Positions 47,996 through 57,773 of a stretch of 64,000 nt of DNA are shown here, in pieces. The notes beneath the pieces were generated by a model, which did not search any database, was not told where the DNA came from, and worked only from the letters and a program-made list of their open reading frames with translations. The stretch covers positions 5,803-69,802 of the forward strand of contig JAJZNK010000052.1 of assembly GCA_021811735.1 (NCBI GenBank), in the 5' to 3' direction. This DNA comes from Nanobdellota archaeon. Lineage in GTDB: Archaea; Nanobdellota; Nanobdellia; Parvarchaeales; Parvarchaeaceae. Position numbers and translations under genes: made by a program. Each line of letters begins with the position of its first letter. Position 1 is the first letter of the stretch.

Positions 47996-48676
47996 CTATT
48001 TTTTCCTCAATATCAACAAAGAATGATCTTTTTGGTAAGGGTATAAATCTATGCTTCGTAATACGTCAAATTTTCCCCTTAACTTATTCGTTTCGTTCCT
48101 GATAATTTCTTTTGGGTTTACAGAAACGTCTATACTCCTAGTTTTTATTGCAAAAACACCTATTTTACCGCTTTTTAGAAACATATCTGCATTCTGAATA
48201 AATATCTCAGTCTGATCCCTCTGTGCTACATCCTGGTATAAAAAATCACATTTTGGGACGGAGGACTTATACAACAAAGGTTTTCTTGCGTCGTTTACTA
48301 TTGGGAATATATTTTTCCTGTTATTTGCAAGCAAAACCAAGTTTACTGCCATTTCTTCAGCTATTTCAATGGCATAAACTTTCCCGTTCGTCCCTATCAT
48401 ATCAGAAACGTGAGAAACTGTAGTTCCGGAAGAGGCTCCTAAATATAGAACAGTATAGGAATTTTTTAAATCGATACTGGTTAACCCCTTGTAAAAAGCC
48501 GCTGCAAATTTGCTCCTATGTGGAATCCATTCTCTGTAGATACTATTGTTGTACCTGAAAATTTTTTCTCCATACACAGAAGCATCCCCATATGCACTTT
48601 GTGTAACCAGTGTTCTCTTGTTCTTGCCGTCATTTAACAGCCAATAAACTCCGTCAATCTCTTTTTTTAATTCCAT
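47996..48676 (-). CDS. flpA: Fibrillarin (C/D box sRNP 2'-O-methyltransferase)
   Basis: YREWIPHRSKFAAA, VLYLGASSGTTVSHVSD and YQDVAQRDQ motifs. Confidence 0.95.
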   Translation of the reverse strand: MELKKEIDGVYWLLNDGKNKRTLVTQSAYGDASVYGEKIFRYNNSIYREWIPHRSKFAAAFYKGLTSIDLKNSYTVLYLGASSGTTVSHVSDMIGTNGKVYAIEIAEEMAVNLVLLANNRKNIFPIVNDARKPLLYKSSVPKCDFLYQDVAQRDQTEIFIQNADMFLKSGKIGVFAIKTRSIDVSVNPKEIIRNETNKLRGKFDVLRSIDLYPYQKDHSLLILRKK

Positions 48677-49412
48677 TTTTATTCTTCACTCGCTTTATGG
48701 CTTCAATCATTTTTGACTTTATTTCCTTGCTTTTGTCAAGTTTTGAAAATACATCCGTTTTTATCGCAATAGAAGTATATGAAGCAACAATTTTCGCAAT
48801 CTTCCCCTTGAGTCCTTCCGGCGCTTCCATAAGAGCGTCATGATTGTATATTATACCGTACTTTGGTGTGGCTTTCTTCCTTCTAGCAGCAAACATTGCC
48901 TTTTCGGCACCCAATACTTGGAGCTTGGAGGAGGTCATTAACGCAAGAAGGCTTGCCTTTTTTCCAAGATATATCATTCTAGCTGCAAGTTCTGGGCCCA
49001 GAACTCCTGTAAGATTAGGGTATTTCTCGCCCATCAGACTGTAAAGCCTTTCATCCACGAATTTTTTAAGATCCGCAATGTTCTTCGCTTCGTTTACAGA
49101 CATAGAAACTATCTGTATATCTTCTTCATCAACATCGTAACCCATACTATCATCACTTATCCCTAAAAGCTTCCCTAGGGAAGTTCGATCGCAAGCACCT
49201 TCCAAGGAGGTTATAAAAGAATCTCTATCTTTCAATATATTGGCTGCTTCTGGATAATAGAGAAAATACAGGTCGTTTAACTGCTCAAAGAGCGTATTTT
49301 CGGATTTTTCTATAGAGTCTGAGAGCATTACCAGTTTTCTTATAAGATCATCTACCAACCAACCTTCTTTTATCTTTTTTCTAGCATTTTCTACAAAAAT
49401 TGAATTGTCCAT
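48654..49412 (-). CDS. nop5: Nop5 (Nop56/58) C/D box sRNP core protein, unusually short form
   Basis: Nop-domain sequence (LTGVLGPELAARMIYLGKKASLLALMTSSKLQVLGAEKAMF...PKYGIIYNH). At only 252 aa there is no obvious N-terminal fibrillarin-binding domain. It overlaps the flpA start by 23 nt. Confidence 0.85.
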   Translation of the reverse strand: MDNSIFVENARKKIKEGWLVDDLIRKLVMLSDSIEKSENTLFEQLNDLYFLYYPEAANILKDRDSFITSLEGACDRTSLGKLLGISDDSMGYDVDEEDIQIVSMSVNEAKNIADLKKFVDERLYSLMGEKYPNLTGVLGPELAARMIYLGKKASLLALMTSSKLQVLGAEKAMFAARRKKATPKYGIIYNHDALMEAPEGLKGKIAKIVASYTSIAIKTDVFSKLDKSKEIKSKMIEAIKRVKNKNGIKKRD

Positions 49413-49495
49413 AATTTTTTTGACAAGGGCAATCTAACCTTGCTAATGAATCCTTAGTAGTTATAGTGATTAATACTTTTTATAGACAGCTTAGC

Positions 49496-51073
49496 TCAAT
49501 CGTCGAATTTCGGGCCACTGCCCTTTTTTGATATGTCCGTCTTCTGCCCGTTAGTTGTTATAGTTATAGGTTCGCCCAGATTGTTCATCGTTTCTAGTGA
49601 TACAGGTATCCCCCACATATCTGATATCCTATTGAGAGCAGTTATAGTTTCTTTATTATAAAGATTGAACATCTGTGCTACCTCTTCCTCGAACTTCTCC
49701 CTCTGCTCCTCTGCGATTATTCCAGTGTATCTTTTTAAGAAACTTAAATCTTGCCTCAGAACCAACCTTGTCCCGTTAAAACTTCCTTTTGGAACGTAAA
49801 CCATCGGCCCATAGTTTTCAGTTTCAAGCAAAAGCTGGAAACGAAATATATTAGGATCTATCTTTGCATTATACTTTTCTTTTATATTGTCTATATCTTC
49901 CGGATATTTGTCTCCATACTGCCTGTCTATCAATGCATTCTTTTTATCTTTAATCTCATCTGCCAGTGCATTAAAAAAATCCGTATCTGCATATAAGAAT
50001 AGGAATTCCCAGTCGGTATATGATTTTACTATCCCTAATGCTTCGGTAAGGCCTTTGTTCTCCATTTTAACATAATTCCTCTTCTCTGCGTCGGAAAGGA
50101 GATTATACAACGGCCCGTGTTTACCTTCATTCCACCTTTTTTCTATATCCTTGAAAAGTCTAAAACCGAGGTAATATGGAAGCTGGGCAGGTGAAAGAAC
50201 ATCAGCTACCTGAAGAATGCCTTTTCTCATCTTAAAAGCAGTTTCTATATCAGTCTTCGCAACTTCCTCGACGTATTTATCTTCAACGAAAGTCGCAAAA
50301 CCCTCATTCATTATTTTTATTCTTACCCTCTTCATGAGCTTGTTTATATCATATTCCATATCGAGCAATTCTCTCTCCCAAGGGTTAAACTTAACATTGT
50401 CCAGCGTGAACTTATATACATCATAAACATCGGAATCCGGATTCGCTTTCTCAGTGTTGTAATATTTATTCTTCTTGTTTCTGTGAAAATCCGGAAACAT
50501 GTCCATCAATCCGCTCAGTGTTTGTGCATGATCATAAAGCTTTTCAACTTGCTCTATGCTCAGATTACTTTCCATTTCACGATATCTACCCCTATAAAAT
50601 GCATGCTTATTCGAATTCGAATCAATTGTCTTGAGGATTCTGTTGTTGTAATGCATATGAAGATGGCCGTATACGTGGGCCATGACGCTTAAAACCTCAT
50701 CGTATGTATCATTTTGGTTTATATAAACCGCCGTGTATTCCTTCTTTTCCAGCGTGTTGTAATAAGGGTGACCGACCATTTCATAAATTACTCCCAGTCT
50801 GTATTTCATCTGGTCTTCTTGCACGAGCTTCTGCTGACCGGCCTCCCACGACGGCAACGGTGTACCATATAGAGCCATTTTCTCAGCAAATTCCTCATTA
50901 TCCAGCATTTTAAACTCTACGTTTCCAAATGATAAACCGAGGCTATTGATCATAAAAGAAGCTATTTTTTTCGCTTCTTTTGTGTATTTCTCATCTATTA
51001 TTGAGCCTCTGGAGACAACTATATTTATCTCATTGCCATCAACCAGCAGCTTTTCAAGAGAGTCATGTGCCAT
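49496..51073 (-). CDS. spoVR: SpoVR/YcgB family protein
   Basis: Size and sequence pattern fit the SpoVR family (EEFAEKMALYGTPLPSWEAGQ, VMAHVYGHLHMHYNN, NEGFATFVE). It is the last gene of the prkA operon. Confidence 0.85.
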   Translation of the reverse strand: MAHDSLEKLLVDGNEINIVVSRGSIIDEKYTKEAKKIASFMINSLGLSFGNVEFKMLDNEEFAEKMALYGTPLPSWEAGQQKLVQEDQMKYRLGVIYEMVGHPYYNTLEKKEYTAVYINQNDTYDEVLSVMAHVYGHLHMHYNNRILKTIDSNSNKHAFYRGRYREMESNLSIEQVEKLYDHAQTLSGLMDMFPDFHRNKKNKYYNTEKANPDSDVYDVYKFTLDNVKFNPWERELLDMEYDINKLMKRVRIKIMNEGFATFVEDKYVEEVAKTDIETAFKMRKGILQVADVLSPAQLPYYLGFRLFKDIEKRWNEGKHGPLYNLLSDAEKRNYVKMENKGLTEALGIVKSYTDWEFLFLYADTDFFNALADEIKDKKNALIDRQYGDKYPEDIDNIKEKYNAKIDPNIFRFQLLLETENYGPMVYVPKGSFNGTRLVLRQDLSFLKRYTGIIAEEQREKFEEEVAQMFNLYNKETITALNRISDMWGIPVSLETMNNLGEPITITTNGQKTDISKKGSGPKFDD

Positions 51074-51074
51074 A

Positions 51075-52136
51075 TCAATTCAAAAGGCTATCGAGCACTT
51101 TTTTAACGTTTTTATAAGATACATCATTACCAGATTTTACAGCATTGGCTTTCTCCCCTCCCATCGATACAAAAGCTTTGTAAAACTGATCAGAATATGT
51201 ATCAACTTGCAGATAAAACGCCTTTGTTAATCTTGGAAAGAGTGTTTTGAGCGTTGAGTAAAGTTCTTCTCCGTTATCACCCGTGTCCCCATCTGTAATA
51301 TGCAAAAGAAAAACATCCTCGCTTTCATATTCGATTTTGCCCCTGGACGCTGAAATAGAATTATAATGTTTACCATCCATCATATCCAATACCATCTGAT
51401 ATGCCGGTTGAAAATAAGTTCCTCCTCCCGCAACAAGTTTAAAGAAGTCCTGACTTTTCTTAGAATCCATTTCGACAGCATCTGTTGTATGTGCTATATA
51501 TCTTATATTGACAACATTATTGTATCTTTGCCTGAGCCAGAACTCTATTAATCCTGCAATAGTTGCCGAAAATTCACCGTAAGAGGACATCGACCCGCTG
51601 ACGTCACGCATTATTACAAACGTTGCAGAAAGATTTGGAAGTTCTTTCTCTTGAATTAAATTATAACGCATATCTTCATCCGTTACATTCACTTTAAATC
51701 CATGCTCTTTAAAATAGCCTGTAGCCATATGTCTTTCGAGCATAGCCTCTATAGTTTTTTCCTGATTTTCGTCTACACCGTTTTCCGCAATCAATAACTT
51801 GTAAAGTTTCTTGGTCTTTTTTCCTGGCTTACTGAAGGATAAACCCCAACTTTGCATCATCTGTTTTAAACGTCTTTTATCTATTCCAAGATTTACTACT
51901 CCTTTTCCTCCCCCACCGTGCCCCTGTCCATCGCCTTGCCCATCGCCTTCTCCTTCGCCCCCTCCTTCTCCAAAGGCACTGTAAGAAATCATAGGATTTC
52001 TTTTTACGGGTATGGTCTTTATAACCGTTTGTCCATCATTTATGTTATGTATATCGATGGAAGAAAGAATTAAATCGTCTTCTTTATCTATTTTTCGCCT
52101 GTATTTGTCTTCTGCATCACCCAACTCGCTAGTCAT
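51075..52136 (-). CDS. yeaH: YeaH/YhbH (DUF444) protein with a vWA-like MIDAS motif
   Basis: Gly/Asp/Glu-rich linker (GEGGGEGEGDGQGDGQGHGGGGKG), then FVIMRDVSGSMS (D-x-S-x-S), then HITDGD. It overlaps the upstream gene by 8 nt. Confidence 0.85.
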   Translation of the reverse strand: MTSELGDAEDKYRRKIDKEDDLILSSIDIHNINDGQTVIKTIPVKRNPMISYSAFGEGGGEGEGDGQGDGQGHGGGGKGVVNLGIDKRRLKQMMQSWGLSFSKPGKKTKKLYKLLIAENGVDENQEKTIEAMLERHMATGYFKEHGFKVNVTDEDMRYNLIQEKELPNLSATFVIMRDVSGSMSSYGEFSATIAGLIEFWLRQRYNNVVNIRYIAHTTDAVEMDSKKSQDFFKLVAGGGTYFQPAYQMVLDMMDGKHYNSISASRGKIEYESEDVFLLHITDGDTGDNGEELYSTLKTLFPRLTKAFYLQVDTYSDQFYKAFVSMGGEKANAVKSGNDVSYKNVKKVLDSLLN

Positions 52137-53931
52137 ACATCAATGTCCCCCTCGTATATACTTTCAATGCTTCTTCAATTGCCCTATCAAAATAACCTAA
52201 ATTACTTTTGAGGAAATTTTTAATATAGTGGTAAAGTTCAGTCGTCTTGTCAATTTCTCCGTCGCCCAGAAAACTGTCATACTTACTCTCTCTTTTTATG
52301 CAGTCAGTACCGGTAAATGTAAGAAAATTGAATATACTCTTGAAGTCGGCAGAATAATTTACAATGCCGAGTGGCACAACTTTTTCTCTAAATTCATTAG
52401 AGTAAGTTTTCAATCTTTCAATATCGAAATACCTGCTAGCATCTGAGAGATATCCGTTAGAATCCTTGAATTCCCGTGACTGTGGGTTTATCAAAGAATT
52501 AAAGTAAGCGCCTATAGTCTGAGTGTACTCTTTAAAGTGATCTCCAAAATAAAATGAAAGTATTGCATAGTCTATGTCGGATTGGACGTTTCTGGTAACA
52601 ACGTCGTCAATATAATCTCTTATTAGGTCATAGTCCTCGATACTTTCCTCATTTCTTTTTAAATATGAAGTTATATCTGAAAAAGACAACTCATTTTTAG
52701 AATTTCCAGAATAATTAAAATCTATTATATTGCTTATTGATCTTATAGAAATGCCTGAACTCCACCCACCTTGATACTCACGTCCACTAAAAATAAACAT
52801 TTTTGCTGCATCGGTGAGGTATTTTTTCCCCACCACATCATATTTTGAATTGCGTGTATCATTTTCAGGTAAAGTATTGTCTATGAATTTTGAAATAGAT
52901 TGTGTCATTTTTCTTTCAAATTCGTCCAACCTTGAAGAGTCATAGTAATCTAATAGTTCAAGAACCTGATTTAAATCTTCATAATCACTACCTAATGCAG
53001 GAATTCTTGAAAGAATATTTATCTTCGCTATATATTCAAAGAAATTAGGTATTGTTTGCTTCATAGGGAGATTGTACTCTTCAATTATCTTAACCTCCTC
53101 AGAATATGACAAATTTCTTCTTACATTTACTTTAATTATCCTATCCAATAAAGGTTTGAATTCTTGAGGTTTATCTTTGGCCAGTGTCTCCATAAACGAT
53201 TCATTACTATGTATTATAACCATGCTGTCGAGAGGTATCCTATTGCCAACAGGGTCAGACAAATTGTTATCATACACATTGCTCATTAACTGGAAAATTC
53301 TCGGATTTATCTCACCCAATTTGATTTTATCCGCACTTATTGTCAAAATTGATCTATTCGAATTTTTCAGTACGTTTACGAAGGAGGGAGAAAGAAAGCT
53401 ATCCCCAAACTCGACTATAGATGATTCGGGGTAAATCCTTTCCAGTCTTATATTTTTGGAAGCATCCAATATCTTCTCCAAGTTTTGTTCGCACTGGTGA
53501 CATATTTCTGGTCTTTTTTGGTTCATCAGAAATTTTTTTGTGTCCAGATTTTCAGTGGAAATCTTTATATCTTTTGGGATGACAGATCTGTAAAGATTGT
53601 ATGGGTTTTCATTATACACACACTGGTGTCCATCTATACTGAGAGTAAATATTTCATTTTCTCGTGCATAAATTTTATAGGAGTGCAGCATGCTGTTTAT
53701 AAGCTCGGTTTTCCCACTCCCACTGGGACCTACAAGCAGCAAAATTGGGATATACCCTTGTCTTGATATAAAAGAAGCTTGTTCAAGAGCGTCCATAAGG
53801 TTCTCTTTCACATCCTTTATGCCATATATCTCCTCAAAAGGAGCATCCCTGGAGAGCATTGCCTTTCTTACTTTCTCAGCGGTAGTTTCCTCTCTCTTCC
53901 CAATCAGTCCTTCCAGACCGGCATCACTCAT
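52129..53931 (-). CDS. PrkA-like AAA+ protein, divergent second copy (600 aa)
   Basis: FEEIYGIKDV...ILLLVGPSGSGKTEL (Walker A) and CVYNENPYNLY. The latter corresponds to the PrkA CP..E.PL motif. Confidence 0.75.
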   Translation of the reverse strand: MSDAGLEGLIGKREETTAEKVRKAMLSRDAPFEEIYGIKDVKENLMDALEQASFISRQGYIPILLLVGPSGSGKTELINSMLHSYKIYARENEIFTLSIDGHQCVYNENPYNLYRSVIPKDIKISTENLDTKKFLMNQKRPEICHQCEQNLEKILDASKNIRLERIYPESSIVEFGDSFLSPSFVNVLKNSNRSILTISADKIKLGEINPRIFQLMSNVYDNNLSDPVGNRIPLDSMVIIHSNESFMETLAKDKPQEFKPLLDRIIKVNVRRNLSYSEEVKIIEEYNLPMKQTIPNFFEYIAKINILSRIPALGSDYEDLNQVLELLDYYDSSRLDEFERKMTQSISKFIDNTLPENDTRNSKYDVVGKKYLTDAAKMFIFSGREYQGGWSSGISIRSISNIIDFNYSGNSKNELSFSDITSYLKRNEESIEDYDLIRDYIDDVVTRNVQSDIDYAILSFYFGDHFKEYTQTIGAYFNSLINPQSREFKDSNGYLSDASRYFDIERLKTYSNEFREKVVPLGIVNYSADFKSIFNFLTFTGTDCIKRESKYDSFLGDGEIDKTTELYHYIKNFLKSNLGYFDRAIEEALKVYTRGTLMYD

Positions 53932-53940
53932 ATAAGAGCC

Positions 53941-56184
53941 TTACTTTGTTATAAACAAGTTATAAGCCACTCTGGCGCATTGGTTGCAGTATCCCATGCT
54001 AATTAACTTGCTTGTTATTCTTTCCTGATCGAGTTCAGTTGCGGTTCCGGCAACAGATGCACTTAGTTTGTCAACGACCGCGTCGGTAAGTTCTGGATAT
54101 CGTTCGATAATTGTAGGAGTCAACATCTCAACGAGTTCATCCACTCCCTTTTTGTTATTTGTTATCGCACTGTCATTTATTATGCTGTATATACTTTCAT
54201 GTATAACGTCACTTCTGATATTTGCCCTTTTTTCTAAATCATTTACGAAGTCATAGTCTATAGGTTGTACAGTACCAAACATAGGTACTCTTACGTTTTT
54301 ATCCTTTTCTCCAGCAGTTTTATTTATGTAATAAACGTTCATTACGTATTTATTTATAAGGCTGTGCACTTTTTTATCCTCGTATTGTACCATCGATACA
54401 TCATTTCTCATCATACGCCTTATCTCGTCGTATGCATCCTGCACTATTACGCTTCCTTCCCCTTTTTCACGAGGCTGTAACCTGGCTTTTGTTTCAGGTG
54501 AGAGATCCTCAAGAGTATTGAGAAAATCCTCTATATACCTCGTTCCATTGAGATTATCCAACAATGTACCAAGACATACTTTTTTATTGAGTTCTTCCTT
54601 AGGTATATACCCTGCCTTTATACCAACATCTCTGCCAAATTCTGCGTAGGCGAGTAATTTTGATGGTGACTTTACCATATCGTCGTATGGCACACCGAGT
54701 TTTACACCCTCCTCAAGTTCTAATATTGGTTTCTGATTCGCTTCACGTACTATATCTTCCAATGATACCTTAACTTCCGGTAGGAATACTCCATTATACA
54801 AGTCTGCTTTATCCTTTAAAGAAATGTTTTCATAATGTGAAATACTGGCTTCAACCCATATTCTTGCAAGCATCCTTAAAAAATGCGGAGGGTAATGTAT
54901 ATTGAGTTCCTTTGAAGCATGGTTGTATATGTCACTAAGTGCGGTTTCTGCGTCTGAAAGTTTGGTCATAGACCGAAAAACGATTATATGCGACCTACGA
55001 AGAAGGTAAGGTTTTATACTGTCAGCTATCTTTTTGTAGTCGTCCATATTTGTTGTACCTATCATTATTGCATCAAATGACTCCTTAAAGGAAGGAGGAA
55101 CTTTCGTTCTTGTATCCTGCACAAAATCAAGCAGGGAATTAGCAAATGATGATGAACCTTTTAGTACCTCACTTATGTAGATTATATTTCCACGCGGAGA
55201 CGGAGCGGATTGGCTGCCAAGTATTCCGAAATCATACGCAAGAACATTGGAATTATCACCGCCAAGTTCATTAAGAACGCTGTAGTGCAGCCGACCACCG
55301 AATATTCCCTTATAATCCAGGTGCTGGTCATCTGCCGCAACGACCGGTTCGGAGATACTTATAACATCATCTCCGGTGGCTTTTTCAACCATTATAAGTT
55401 TTTCTATTATTTTTTGTATTTTATCAGTATCGGGTTTACCATTTTTCTGCATAAACTGGCCTAGTGAATCCTCAAGAGTCATTTTTATCTTGCCCATTGT
55501 AGAACCAACCGCCCCTCTTTTGTTTATGCTCGGTCCTTTCCAGTAATTGTCATCTACATCATCGCTCAAATTATCGACTTTATCACTCAGCACATTGATT
55601 ATTTCTTCTATTTTTGTCTTTTTATTTGTGCCGGCAATTCTTTGAAGTAGATATATCTCATCTTGTATGTTCTCACCGAGCATAAGCTTCCTCTTTCCTC
55701 TTTGGCCAAGTTGCTTTTTAACATCCCTTAAGAACTTATCTTTATCTTGCGTAGACAACTCGCTTAAGGCAGGGTTGTCTTCTAACGAATCCAAATCAAG
55801 TTTAAGTAAGTACTGTGTTCCCAAGTCACTTTCAGAATAGACTCTGAGAGTTTCAGACAAAGTATTAAGAAATTCACTTTTACCGGCCCCGGGAGGAGAT
55901 ATTATAACGGTAAGCTTATTGCGCATGTCACTATTTCTCGCAGCTCTCTTCAAAAATGAAACGAATTCATCAACAAAATTACTTGAATCATACCTTGTTT
56001 TGATATTTCTTTGATCATCTTCTTGTTTCACAAGGAACTGCCACTGTCTGTCTTTTTTGCCATAAGAATATATTGCTGACAGCAGACGTTGCTGCGCATT
56101 ATAAAAAATCTCTGGCCTGTCCTTGCTGAAATCAAGAAATTCATCCAAAGTCATTTTCTGTTTTACTTCTGTTTTTACTCCCAT
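53941..56184 (-). CDS. prkA: PrkA/YeaG family AAA+ serine-kinase-like protein (747 aa)
   Basis: N-terminal LDEFLDF...PEIFYNAQQRL and Walker A IISPPGAGKSEF, followed by a long C-terminal PrkA-type region. It is the first gene of the four-gene string. Confidence 0.85.
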   Translation of the reverse strand: MGVKTEVKQKMTLDEFLDFSKDRPEIFYNAQQRLLSAIYSYGKKDRQWQFLVKQEDDQRNIKTRYDSSNFVDEFVSFLKRAARNSDMRNKLTVIISPPGAGKSEFLNTLSETLRVYSESDLGTQYLLKLDLDSLEDNPALSELSTQDKDKFLRDVKKQLGQRGKRKLMLGENIQDEIYLLQRIAGTNKKTKIEEIINVLSDKVDNLSDDVDDNYWKGPSINKRGAVGSTMGKIKMTLEDSLGQFMQKNGKPDTDKIQKIIEKLIMVEKATGDDVISISEPVVAADDQHLDYKGIFGGRLHYSVLNELGGDNSNVLAYDFGILGSQSAPSPRGNIIYISEVLKGSSSFANSLLDFVQDTRTKVPPSFKESFDAIMIGTTNMDDYKKIADSIKPYLLRRSHIIVFRSMTKLSDAETALSDIYNHASKELNIHYPPHFLRMLARIWVEASISHYENISLKDKADLYNGVFLPEVKVSLEDIVREANQKPILELEEGVKLGVPYDDMVKSPSKLLAYAEFGRDVGIKAGYIPKEELNKKVCLGTLLDNLNGTRYIEDFLNTLEDLSPETKARLQPREKGEGSVIVQDAYDEIRRMMRNDVSMVQYEDKKVHSLINKYVMNVYYINKTAGEKDKNVRVPMFGTVQPIDYDFVNDLEKRANIRSDVIHESIYSIINDSAITNNKKGVDELVEMLTPTIIERYPELTDAVVDKLSASVAGTATELDQERITSKLISMGYCNQCARVAYNLFITK

Positions 56185-56491
56185 AACTCAACCCCCAGTT
56201 TATATAAGAATATAACTCACTTATATATCTTTTCTTCAAAAAATTACAAACTTTAGCCCTATTTTTGATAAAAATTATAGAGTTTAAATGGCATATTTCT
56301 ACTCTTTTATAATGTCAATGCTTATTTTAGAATTTAGCTTGATTTTTATACAGATTACCATATATGAAGAGATTTGGTAAGTCGATTCAATTATTTACCC
56401 GGATGCAAATTTTGATGATTATTTGTTTCTGTTTAATATCTCAAGAAATGTGGGATGAAGAAACCAATTAAATTAACGCCACTGTCAAAAC

Positions 56492-56525: not shown

Positions 56526-57773
56526 CTATTGGGGATTATAACTTATAATTTTCAGAAGTTCTTTTTCAAGGTTGGTTATATCAAGCTTAATATCTTTTTT
56601 TGCGTCCAGGTCCCTTACAGTTATCTTGCCTTCTTGTATATCTCTATCACCTACAATGATGGCGAACTTTATTTTCTTTGAATTACAGTAATCAAGGCCC
56701 TTTGAAAGTGATACTTTGTCGAGCAGGACATCTGTCACTATACCAGCTTCCCTGAGTTTCATTGTTATGTCTCTTGCTTTTTCAACGCTGTCTATATTTA
56801 TCACGCAAAAACTTTTCTGAAATTCGTTCTTATCATTCTCAAGAATTGTTTCCATAATCACGTCAAATCCTATTGCACCGCCCACTATCTGCAGATCTGA
56901 ATCGAAATTTTTACTCAGCTTGTCATATCTTCCGCCACCAGCCATTACAACACCTTTAAACTTTCCTTCGGTAAATTCGAATTCGAATATAGTGCCATCG
57001 TAATAGTCCTGACCCCTCACAAGAGACCTGTCAAAAATCACATTATCTATACCGTAGCTTTTCTTTAAATCGGAAATCAGCGTAGTAAGTTCATCAAAAC
57101 CATTAAGGTGACTGATATCACTACCAGATAGATATTCCTTGATTTTTTCTGCCTTTTCTACGCCGATTATAGCAGTTATTTTGGTTATAACCTCTTCGAG
57201 CCCGACTTTATGTATTTTGTCTATCTCTCTAAGCACCTGGATGATATCTTCGATTTTAAGTTCAAGTGTCTGCATCAAGGAGGTGAGTATCTTTCTGTTA
57301 CTCACATTTATGATATATCCTTTTACTCCTATCTTTTTAAGAGCAAAATCTATGCACGCTATTATCTCCGAATCATAAAATATACTGGGGGATCCGAATA
57401 CATCTATATCCGCCTGTATAAATTCTCTCCACCTACCCTTCCTAACATCGTCATATCTCCATACATTGCCGATACTGTAGGCTTTCAGCGGAAAAATCAA
57501 TGATTTATCCGAAGAGACTACTCTTAATTTAGACACTGTATGTTCCGGACGCAACGCAAGTTTTTCGCCCTTTTTATCTTCAAAAGAATACAACTGTGAT
57601 TCTATTTCCGGGCCTGATTTATCTGTAAAAAGTGATAGATATTCAAAAGCTGGTGTTTCTATGGGTTCAAAACCGAATAGTTCATAGGTTTTTCTTATTG
57701 TTTCCAGAACCTGTTGCCTGATAAACGCTTTTCTGCCCGTAAAATCTCTCACCCCTTTGACTTTATCAACCAT
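56526..57773 (-). CDS. hisS: Histidine--tRNA ligase
   Basis: Class II motifs LRPEHT, WRYDDVRKGRWREFIQADIDVFG and AGGGRYD, plus a C-terminal anticodon-binding domain. Confidence 0.95.
   Translation of the reverse strand: MVDKVKGVRDFTGRKAFIRQQVLETIRKTYELFGFEPIETPAFEYLSLFTDKSGPEIESQLYSFEDKKGEKLALRPEHTVSKLRVVSSDKSLIFPLKAYSIGNVWRYDDVRKGRWREFIQADIDVFGSPSIFYDSEIIACIDFALKKIGVKGYIINVSNRKILTSLMQTLELKIEDIIQVLREIDKIHKVGLEEVITKITAIIGVEKAEKIKEYLSGSDISHLNGFDELTTLISDLKKSYGIDNVIFDRSLVRGQDYYDGTIFEFEFTEGKFKGVVMAGGGRYDKLSKNFDSDLQIVGGAIGFDVIMETILENDKNEFQKSFCVINIDSVEKARDITMKLREAGIVTDVLLDKVSLSKGLDYCNSKKIKFAIIVGDRDIQEGKITVRDLDAKKDIKLDITNLEKELLKIISYNPQ

Follow-up and report, generated by a model that had tools for sequence, protein, structure and literature searches.

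A 64,000-nucleotide (nt) stretch of DNA from a Nanobdellota archaeon (GenBank assembly GCA_021811735.1, contig JAJZNK010000052.1, positions 5,803 to 69,802 of the forward strand), referred to here as the window, contains four consecutive minus-strand genes for two PrkA-type AAA+ ATPases, a DUF444 protein, and a SpoVR-like protein. The question raised by this locus is what kind of module it represents, and whether its two PrkA proteins work together. We lean slightly towards reading it as the Parvarchaeales two-PrkA version of the PrkA-YeaH-SpoVR module, acting as a heteromeric AAA+ remodelling machine. The part of this reading in which PrkA1 and PrkA2 are mixed in one machine comes from sequence comparison and is held tentatively, at clearly less than even confidence. 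The four genes, with protein lengths in amino acids (aa), are located as follows.

53941 to 56184, minus strand: gene 1, PrkA1, 747 aa
52129 to 53931, minus strand: gene 2, PrkA2, 600 aa
51075 to 52136, minus strand: gene 3, DUF444 protein (YeaH/YhbH-like), 353 aa
49496 to 51073, minus strand: gene 4, SpoVR/YcgB-like protein, 525 aa

The genes are tightly packed, with a 9-nt spacer between genes 1 and 2, an 8-nt overlap (ATGACTAG) between genes 2 and 3, and a 1-nt spacer between genes 3 and 4. The coordinates of the open reading frames (ORFs), these three distances, and all motifs quoted in a preliminary description of the locus were re-read in the window and are correct, including, for gene 1, IISPPGAGKSE; for gene 2, LLLVGPSGSGKTE and CVYNENPYNLY; and for gene 3, RDVSGSMS together with the Gly/Asp/Glu linker. 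The four ORFs are not a product of chance, as they are long ORFs in an AT-rich genome and their order is kept in all complete related loci.

The families proposed for the four proteins in the preliminary description were checked against Pfam, with gathering thresholds of 25 bits for AAA_PrkA (PF08298) and the PrkA C-terminal domain (PF06798) and of 27 bits for DUF444 (PF04285) and SpoVR (PF04293). All four assignments held, including that of gene 2 as PrkA-like and that of gene 4 as SpoVR-like.

Gene 1, AAA_PrkA: 33.4 bits against a threshold of 25, passes
Gene 1, PrkA C-terminal domain: 25.2 bits against a threshold of 25, passes, borderline
Gene 2, AAA_PrkA: 56.3 bits against a threshold of 25, passes
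Gene 3, DUF444: 68.3 bits against a threshold of 27, passes
Gene 4, SpoVR: 86.7 bits against a threshold of 27, passes

Gene 2 had no Pfam match to the PrkA C-terminal domain and no match to the NCBIfam YeaG equivalog model (NF011999). Gene 1 scored 32.7 bits against a cut-off of 576 for the same model, and gene 3 matched the NCBIfam YhbH/PRK05325 models below their cut-offs, with 74.7 bits against a cut-off of 388 for YeaH-type models. Since all four proteins fall short of the equivalog cut-offs in NCBIfam, they are, as judged by these models, divergent family members and not equivalogs of the E. coli or Bacillus proteins.

Gene 2 had been described as much more divergent than gene 1, and this was not borne out. 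When compared by hhalign with a canonical PrkA profile of 26 sequences, the gene-1 family aligned over residues 21-746 (99.9 %, E 6e-38) and the gene-2 family over residues 16-600 (99.9 %, E 2.8e-37), and the AAA_PrkA score of gene 2 is above that of gene 1. By this measure gene 2 is a genuine full-length PrkA paralogue, as close to canonical PrkA as gene 1. The two families compared directly could be aligned only around the P-loop (BLASTP; hhalign 94 %, 68 columns). Within the close clade of relatives, gene 1 is the most constrained (~80 % identity) and gene 2 the least (~58 %), with genes 3 and 4 near 70 %. Both paralogues match PDB entry 9xip ('Serine protein kinase') by sequence, gene 1 with E 1.9e-7. 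The entries 9xip, 9xiq, and 9xir hold a solved PrkA-type protein of 692 aa (30 chains in the 3 entries) with the P-loop GPVGSAKS, and no paper on them was found in the literature searched.

The following motifs and residues were assigned in the two proteins.

55876 to 55899, minus strand: PrkA1 P-loop SPPGAGKS, residues 96-103
PrkA1 catalytic residues, by alignment: Walker-B Glu E339, sensor-1 N379, Arg R397
53977 to 54576: PrkA1 C-terminal cysteine triad C537/C733/C736, its only cysteines
53707 to 53730, minus strand: PrkA2 Walker A GPSGSGKT, residues 68-75
PrkA2 key residues and motif: D201 (Asp where Walker B normally has Glu), sensor-1 N243, Arg R264, R309, RRNLSYSEE
53491 to 53622: PrkA2 N-terminal cysteine triad C104/C144/C147; C544 is also present and the C-terminal triad is lost

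Their conservation across canonical PrkA, PrkA1, and PrkA2 is given below; the Walker-B and 'SRL' Arg assignments come from alignments of <20 % identity in which MAFFT and hhalign are locally discordant, and are leads only.

P-loop Lys: universal in canonical PrkA, PrkA1, and PrkA2
Sensor-1 Asn: canonical 20/27 (Thr in 6); universal in PrkA1 and PrkA2
Conserved Arg (gene 1 R397, gene 2 R264): universal in canonical PrkA, PrkA1, and PrkA2
Walker-B acidic residue: canonical Glu 27/27; PrkA1 Glu 13/13; PrkA2 Asp 12/13
'SRL' Arg (sensor-2-like): canonical 27/27; lost in PrkA1 (S447); PrkA2 R309 13/13

In PrkA1 the conserved 'SxE' Glu seemed to be lost, but this was discarded as evidence, as hhalign shows an adjacent conserved Asp/Glu (SDAE). 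The AlphaFold2 (AF2) model of gene 2 (predicted local distance difference test score [pLDDT] of 79.5; predicted template modelling score of 0.76) has the alpha/beta core of an AAA+ module, in which D201 and N243 sit at the ends of strands beta3 and beta4, respectively, and R264 lies immediately ahead of beta5. Foldseek matched this model to generic AAA+ folds only (RFC, RuvBL, ORC, Lon, ClpA, BchI, and NorQ), with no kinase among the matches and no match for the C-terminal half. The entry 9xip was not among its top 50 matches and may be missing from the fold library. For the gene-1 model, whose quality is too low for a verdict on a kinase fold, Foldseek returned nothing at E <= 1e-3, and kinase entries (TgCDPK1) appeared only at E above 1.

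The four-gene unit is conserved well beyond the window. The order PrkA1-PrkA2-DUF444-SpoVR was found in every complete related locus, in about 20 Parvarchaeales species genomes and about 10 low-GC archaeal contigs, and is kept both in a close clade (gene 2 identity of 50-64 %) and in a distant Parvarchaeales clade (31-36 %). A scan for the gene-2 family with one genome per GTDB species gave 25 loci, all in metagenome-assembled genomes named Parvarchaeum, 'Parvarchaeota', or 'Nanoarchaeota archaeon'. ARMAN-4 and ARMAN-5 are among these, and most of the 25 carry isolate codes resembling those of published acid-mine-drainage surveys. The nearest named relatives are Candidatus Parvarchaeum and Parvarchaeota (49-62 % identity for gene 2 and 64-80 % for gene 1). 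The earlier impression of a non-halophilic archaeon was thus confirmed, the host belonging to the Parvarchaeales (ARMAN-type, DPANN).

An exhaustive gene-2 profile search of 1.84 billion cluster representatives gave 120 matches, and full-length relatives amounted to only about ten clusters at 50 % identity. Second-tier relatives (E 1e-24 to 1e-52) matched the AAA+ half only. Those with readable context are all located in PrkA1-PrkA2-DUF444-SpoVR clusters of other low-GC archaea, and one short second-tier contig is consistent with the four-gene order. A metagenome scan with tier-2 PrkA2 added 9 further low-GC loci; the complete ones are colinear, and those at contig ends agree as far as they reach. 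In all PrkA2-seeded loci whose contig extends far enough, a PrkA1 gene comes before PrkA2; no PrkA1 query was run on the genome or metagenome collections, so that a PrkA1 lacking PrkA2 was outside the scope of these searches. A word-indexed protein search with a broad PrkA2 alignment returned essentially the same Parvarchaeales set and did not reach haloarchaea, and tblastn of genes 1 and 4 against plasmids gave weak Bacillales matches only and no archaeal one.

A shorter form of the cluster was also seen. An archaeal-looking contig (locus L035, 6014-10191; weaker match P0081) carries a single PrkA (573 aa) with DUF444 and SpoVR, located between gatD and a gatE/gatB-type gene. On the basis of this cluster, archaea have both one-PrkA and two-PrkA forms. 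Two of the early assemblies are irregular. In ARMAN-4 (L015, GG730039.1), gene 1 is split into ORFs of 184 aa and 571 aa and gene 2 is N-terminally shortened, and in ARMAN-5 (L005, GG745582.1) gene 2 lies between fragments of genes 1 and 3, after which comes a copy of gene 1 in inverted orientation. These oddities are likely sequencing or assembly errors and not biology.

Evidence on the relationship between the two PrkA proteins was obtained from their cysteines. The conserved cysteines of canonical PrkA number six: one triad (C...CxxC) is N-terminal and lies within an insertion of the AAA+ module, and the other (C...GYCxxC) is C-terminal. Among the Parvarchaeales, PrkA1 has essentially the C-terminal triad alone (22/22 sequences examined), and PrkA2 has kept the N-terminal triad and lost the C-terminal one, with at most a few scattered extra cysteines (21/21 sequences examined). 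Gene 1 has an intact terminal GYCxxC motif, of which gene 2 has a degenerate form (GYFDRA). Neither paralogue alone has the six cysteines of canonical PrkA; the pair together holds both triads. In contrast, both paralogues have kept all six cysteines in L030 and L031, the two outgroup archaea with Cys positions listed. For L032 and L033, alignment counts are consistent with an N-terminal triad kept in PrkA1.

A PrkA phylogeny, as suggested in the preliminary description, was run as a neighbor-joining tree of 13 PrkA1, 13 PrkA2, and 27 canonical sequences (527 columns, 200 bootstraps). It contains two old clades, PrkA1 and PrkA2, each recovered in 200/200 replicates and with an identical internal topology, namely Parvarchaeales, then (L030, L031), then (L032, L033). 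Because the two clades mirror each other, the pair is, on this tree, older than the split of these lineages and was inherited or transferred as a unit. The grouping of PrkA1 and PrkA2 as sisters (186/200) was not relied on, given the saturated distances and the likelihood of long-branch attraction.

The reciprocal loss of the Cys triads supports a PrkA1/PrkA2 hetero-oligomer, since in one complex each ancestral feature would be needed only once. The hetero-oligomeric ring proposed in the preliminary description therefore gains indirect support from strict co-occurrence, the mirror trees, and the reciprocal Cys loss, which falls short of proof. A stronger version, in which reciprocal degeneration has made the Parvarchaeales PrkA1 and PrkA2 an obligate heteromeric AAA+ machine, or 'split' PrkA, is possible but on the doubtful side. 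The residue assignments suggest that PrkA1 would then hold the catalytic Glu of Walker B and the C-terminal Cys3 site, and that PrkA2 would hold the N-terminal Cys3 site and the sensor-2-like Arg, with a weakened Walker B (Asp). If this were true, functions fused in the bacterial enzyme would be divided between two proteins. Their retention behind a conserved promoter in genome-reduced, presumably host-dependent archaea would then point to a core role, for example, in the survival of host-detached, non-growing cells.

The two partner proteins carry conserved motifs of their own.

51591 to 51605, minus strand: gene 3 MIDAS-type (metal ion-dependent adhesion site) pattern D178-x-S180-x-S182, followed by T240 and D274
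50657 to 50680: gene 4 motif AHVYGHLH, residues 132-139; further motifs EGFA at residues 257-260 and PY..G at residues 299-303

In gene 3, a set of 15 diverse orthologues shows no variation at D178, S180, S182, T240, or D274, whose spacing is integrin-like and typical of MIDAS sites; a conserved N-terminal peptide and a linker rich in Gly, Asp, and Glu are further features of the protein. DUF444 was matched in 15/15 gene-3 orthologues. Matches to the von Willebrand factor A (vWA) models VWA_CoxE and VWA_2 were sub-threshold (E 0.02-0.06, in 4-5/15 DUF444 members). The earlier reading of gene 3 as a DUF444 protein with a MIDAS-like site thus stands for the DUF444 assignment and the complete DxSxS...T...D pattern; a vWA domain is matched below threshold only. 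In gene 4, H133, G136, H137, E257, and G258, within the AHVxGH and EGFA motifs, are invariant in 15 orthologues. Profile searches of the PDB found no solved relative for DUF444 or SpoVR by sequence.

In the mechanism that we favor, PrkA1 and PrkA2 would form one hetero-oligomeric AAA+ machine. Each would supply a P-loop Lys, a Walker-B acidic residue, a sensor-1 Asn, and a conserved Arg, as well as one of the two ancestral Cys3 sites, which are probably metal binding. PrkA1 (~80 % conserved) would be the main motor, and PrkA2, which is faster evolving and has Asp for the Walker-B Glu, would be a slower or regulatory subunit. The DUF444 protein would act as an adaptor between ATPase and client via its MIDAS-type site and conserved N-terminal peptide, and SpoVR would serve as a partner, client, or regulator. 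The output would be the ATP-driven remodelling or degradation of target proteins in starvation or stress and not Hanks-type phosphorylation. Several results weigh against this mechanism. Support for a contact between PrkA1 and PrkA2 is indirect, coming from sequence comparison. No protease domain, Lon_C/S16 included, was detected by Pfam in the four proteins, the gene-1 AF2 model is poor (pLDDT of 64.5), the vWA matches of gene 3 are sub-threshold, and the Walker-B and 'SRL' Arg leads come from discordant alignments. The biochemistry of bacterial PrkA is also unsettled: sporulation and osmotic stress tolerance in B. anthracis require the protein, yet its protease and kinase activities in vitro were negligible (PMC13001217).

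PrkA1 and PrkA2 could instead be two separate machines, homo-oligomers with different clients or steps that share an operon and the YeaH and SpoVR proteins. This would be consistent with the P-loop Lys, Walker-B acidic residue, sensor-1 Asn, and conserved Arg kept by each paralogue, with the direct profile comparison, which aligns the P-loop region only and hence makes them very different proteins, and with the single PrkA that suffices in some archaea (L035). However, the reciprocal loss of the Cys triads falls exactly where both paralogues occur, with both outgroup paralogues complete; PrkA1 lies ahead of PrkA2 in all PrkA2-seeded loci that reach that far; and the mirrored topologies and tight translational coupling of the genes also argue for joint action, so that we consider separate machines unlikely. 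An older interpretation, in which PrkA1 and PrkA2 are Ser/Thr kinases of a phospho-signalling cascade with YeaH and SpoVR as accessory proteins, draws on E. coli YeaG, which Price et al. (10.1101/072470) cite as phosphorylating itself and casein in vitro. Databases call the relatives 'predicted Ser/Thr protein kinase', 9xip was deposited under a kinase name, and a 2026 P. putida preprint still treats YeaG as a kinase. Neither PrkA protein, however, has a Pfam match to a Pkinase-type or other kinase domain, and each has an AAA+ module as its N-terminal half. B. subtilis PrkA is an ATPase with Lon-like ATP-dependent casein hydrolysis and no detectable kinase activity or autophosphorylation (PMC9512850), and kinase activity was negligible for the B. 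anthracis protein (PMC13001217). A kinase cascade is therefore distinctly improbable.

An anti-virus defence system or a recently acquired mobile island can hardly be the explanation. AAA+ ATPase and vWA pairs occur in some defence systems, and PADLOC gave weak P-loop-level matches, but all of these were at E 1e-3 or weaker and covered the P-loop only, and the defence reading was rejected as P-loop noise. The GC content of the locus equals that of its surroundings (~0.32-0.42 throughout the window, with no compositional island seen), its position by the histidyl-tRNA synthetase (HisRS) gene is stable across species, and the congruent paralogue phylogenies argue for co-inheritance as a unit. 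The remaining alternative, a module that shares one regulon or transcript with the downstream nop5 and fibrillarin genes and is co-regulated with ribosome biogenesis, concerns the flanks of the locus, which are arranged as follows.

56526 to 57773: HisRS, upstream of gene 1
49413 to 49495, minus strand: 83-nt spacer between gene 4 and nop5, with TATA-like CTATAAAAAG and no oligo-T run
48654 to 49412, minus strand: nop5, downstream of gene 4 after 83 nt
47996 to 48676: fibrillarin, after nop5

The shared orientation and the 83-nt gap, which has no oligo-T run in the window, agree with the preliminary description, and the synteny of HisRS, module, nop5, and fibrillarin in about 12 close species also favors co-regulation. 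However, this synteny is restricted to the Parvarchaeum-like clade. In the distant Parvarchaeales clade, nop5-fibrillarin was undetected beside the module or lies >4 kb away, and in the non-Parvarchaeales archaea with listed contexts other genes flank the module. The spacers between gene 4 and nop5 in relatives vary from 29 to 215 nt and are AT rich and poorly conserved, with TATA-like elements. The gene-4 stop is directly followed by a TTTT run in most relatives but not in the window. We read the neighboring nop5-fibrillarin genes as clade-local synteny outside the system, and the proposed co-regulation is very unlikely, although read-through into nop5 may occur in this particular genome.

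Some further features of these flanks were observed. The nop5 and fibrillarin genes overlap by 23 nt (48654-48676), compared with ~11 to 26 nt in close relatives. An element of ~40 nt (GAATATATTAATAAGTAAAGTATNCATTAGTAGTATGCT) is located upstream of nop5 in L007, L008, L010, L012, L018, and L019, with a partial version in the window, and could be a nop5 promoter or a small RNA. HisRS is near the module in both clades, but its side differs: upstream for the close clade, and downstream by 0.05-3.3 kb for the distant one (L003, L013, L020, L021, L023, L025, and L028); this nearness is probably conserved synteny in small genomes.

The region before gene 1 contains a candidate promoter, with a B recognition element (BRE)-like sequence.

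56221 to 56237, minus strand: candidate archaeal promoter, BRE-like GAAGAAAAG and TATA box ATATATAA, ~41 nt upstream of the gene-1 ATG
56221 to 56228, minus strand: TATA box
56198 to 56210, minus strand: conserved block TTCYTATATAWAC, candidate second TATA, operator, or initiator
56191 to 56196, minus strand: Shine-Dalgarno-like GGGGGT before gene 1

Conservation of the block GAATTTTTTGAAGAAAA-(G)TATATAA extends over 8 Parvarchaeum-like species, and the A-rich BRE-like, TATA, TTCYTATATAWAC, and GGGGGT blocks are near-invariant in eight species whose proteins are just 58-80 % identical. The tight gene spacing and these conserved blocks support a single regulated transcription unit of genes 1-4. 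The one transcription unit proposed earlier thus fits both the translationally coupled genes and the conserved promoter predicted before gene 1. The 8 close species share two more upstream blocks, TRTAAATTTTAT near -95 and GAATTTTTTGAAG near -66 (window 56185-56300, minus strand). In the distant Parvarchaeales (L028, L023, L003, and L025), a palindrome-like TTGTAAAAATTACAA is located upstream of an TTATTTAAA TATA box. The TRTAAATTTTAT and GAATTTTTTGAAG blocks of the close species and the TTGTAAAAATTACAA block of the distant ones are candidate regulator-binding sites of the operon.

PrkA-YeaH-SpoVR is among the most widespread conserved clusters with disputed biochemistry, its ATPase having been taken for a kinase, a Lon-like protease, or an ATPase with neither activity. 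The present finding leaves the picture of what the module is unchanged. It extends the two-PrkA form well beyond haloarchaea, into genome-reduced DPANN archaea, as a conserved unit with a conserved candidate promoter, and the reciprocal triad loss offers a testable handle on the role of the triads and on mixed PrkA rings.

Among the closest known systems is that of the haloarchaea, in all of which two adjacent PrkA genes were found, always with DUF444 and SpoVR; these clusters were then deemed absent from other archaea (Anderson et al. 2011, PMC3102087). The two-PrkA four-gene architecture is therefore not new for archaea, and the module genes were also already present in the ARMAN-4 and ARMAN-5 assemblies; the DPANN unit is a new case of it. 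In a natural Haloquadratum population, expression of the haloarchaeal gene prkA2 ranked within the top 25 genes (PMC9684190). Searches of the accessible literature found no paper tying PrkA or SpoVR to DPANN or Parvarchaeales and no functional study of the module in any archaeon, in agreement with its earlier description as uncharacterised in archaea. The haloarchaeal cluster has the same two adjacent PrkA genes, DUF444, and SpoVR and is likewise functionally uncharacterised, whereas the host described here is a low-GC, non-halophilic, genome-reduced DPANN archaeon. No halophile-type (acidic, low-lysine) protein was found among the top 81 of 120 PrkA2-profile matches checked for composition, and no high-GC or haloarchaeal locus was found among the 9 loci of the metagenome scan. 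Because of these two results, the DPANN and haloarchaeal PrkA duplications may be independent.

The bacterial PrkA/YeaG-YhbH/YeaH-SpoVR/YcgB triad contains the same three families in the same order, and both PrkA proteins of the window are full-length homologues of its ATPase, but it has one PrkA where the archaeal unit has two. Compared to bacterial PrkA, PrkA1 has an insertion of ~100 aa and lacks the N-terminal Cys triad, and neither the N-terminal helical region nor the C-terminal Cys triad is present in PrkA2. In bacteria the triad acts as one genetic unit tied to sporulation, nitrogen starvation, and nutrient shifts, with yeaG, yeaH, and ycgB mutually cofit in six bacteria (bioRxiv 10.1101/072470). 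Lon proteases resemble PrkA2 in its Walker A region, which matches Lon AAA+ modules in the PDB (E 5e-4 to 3e-5), but the S16 domain was undetected here and the C-terminal halves have no structural match. The MoxR-vWA, NorQ-NorD, and BchI-BchD systems also place an AAA+ gene beside a DxSxS...T...D protein, and BchI and NorQ are among the PrkA2 fold matches. Unlike in those systems, Pfam gave no MoxR-type match (AAA_3/AAA_5) at E <= 0.01 and the vWA matches are sub-threshold, so that the MoxR-type likeness drawn in the preliminary description does not extend to family membership and is retained as a functional analogy. BchI/BchD provides a precedent for an active AAA+ protein paired with a degenerate one.

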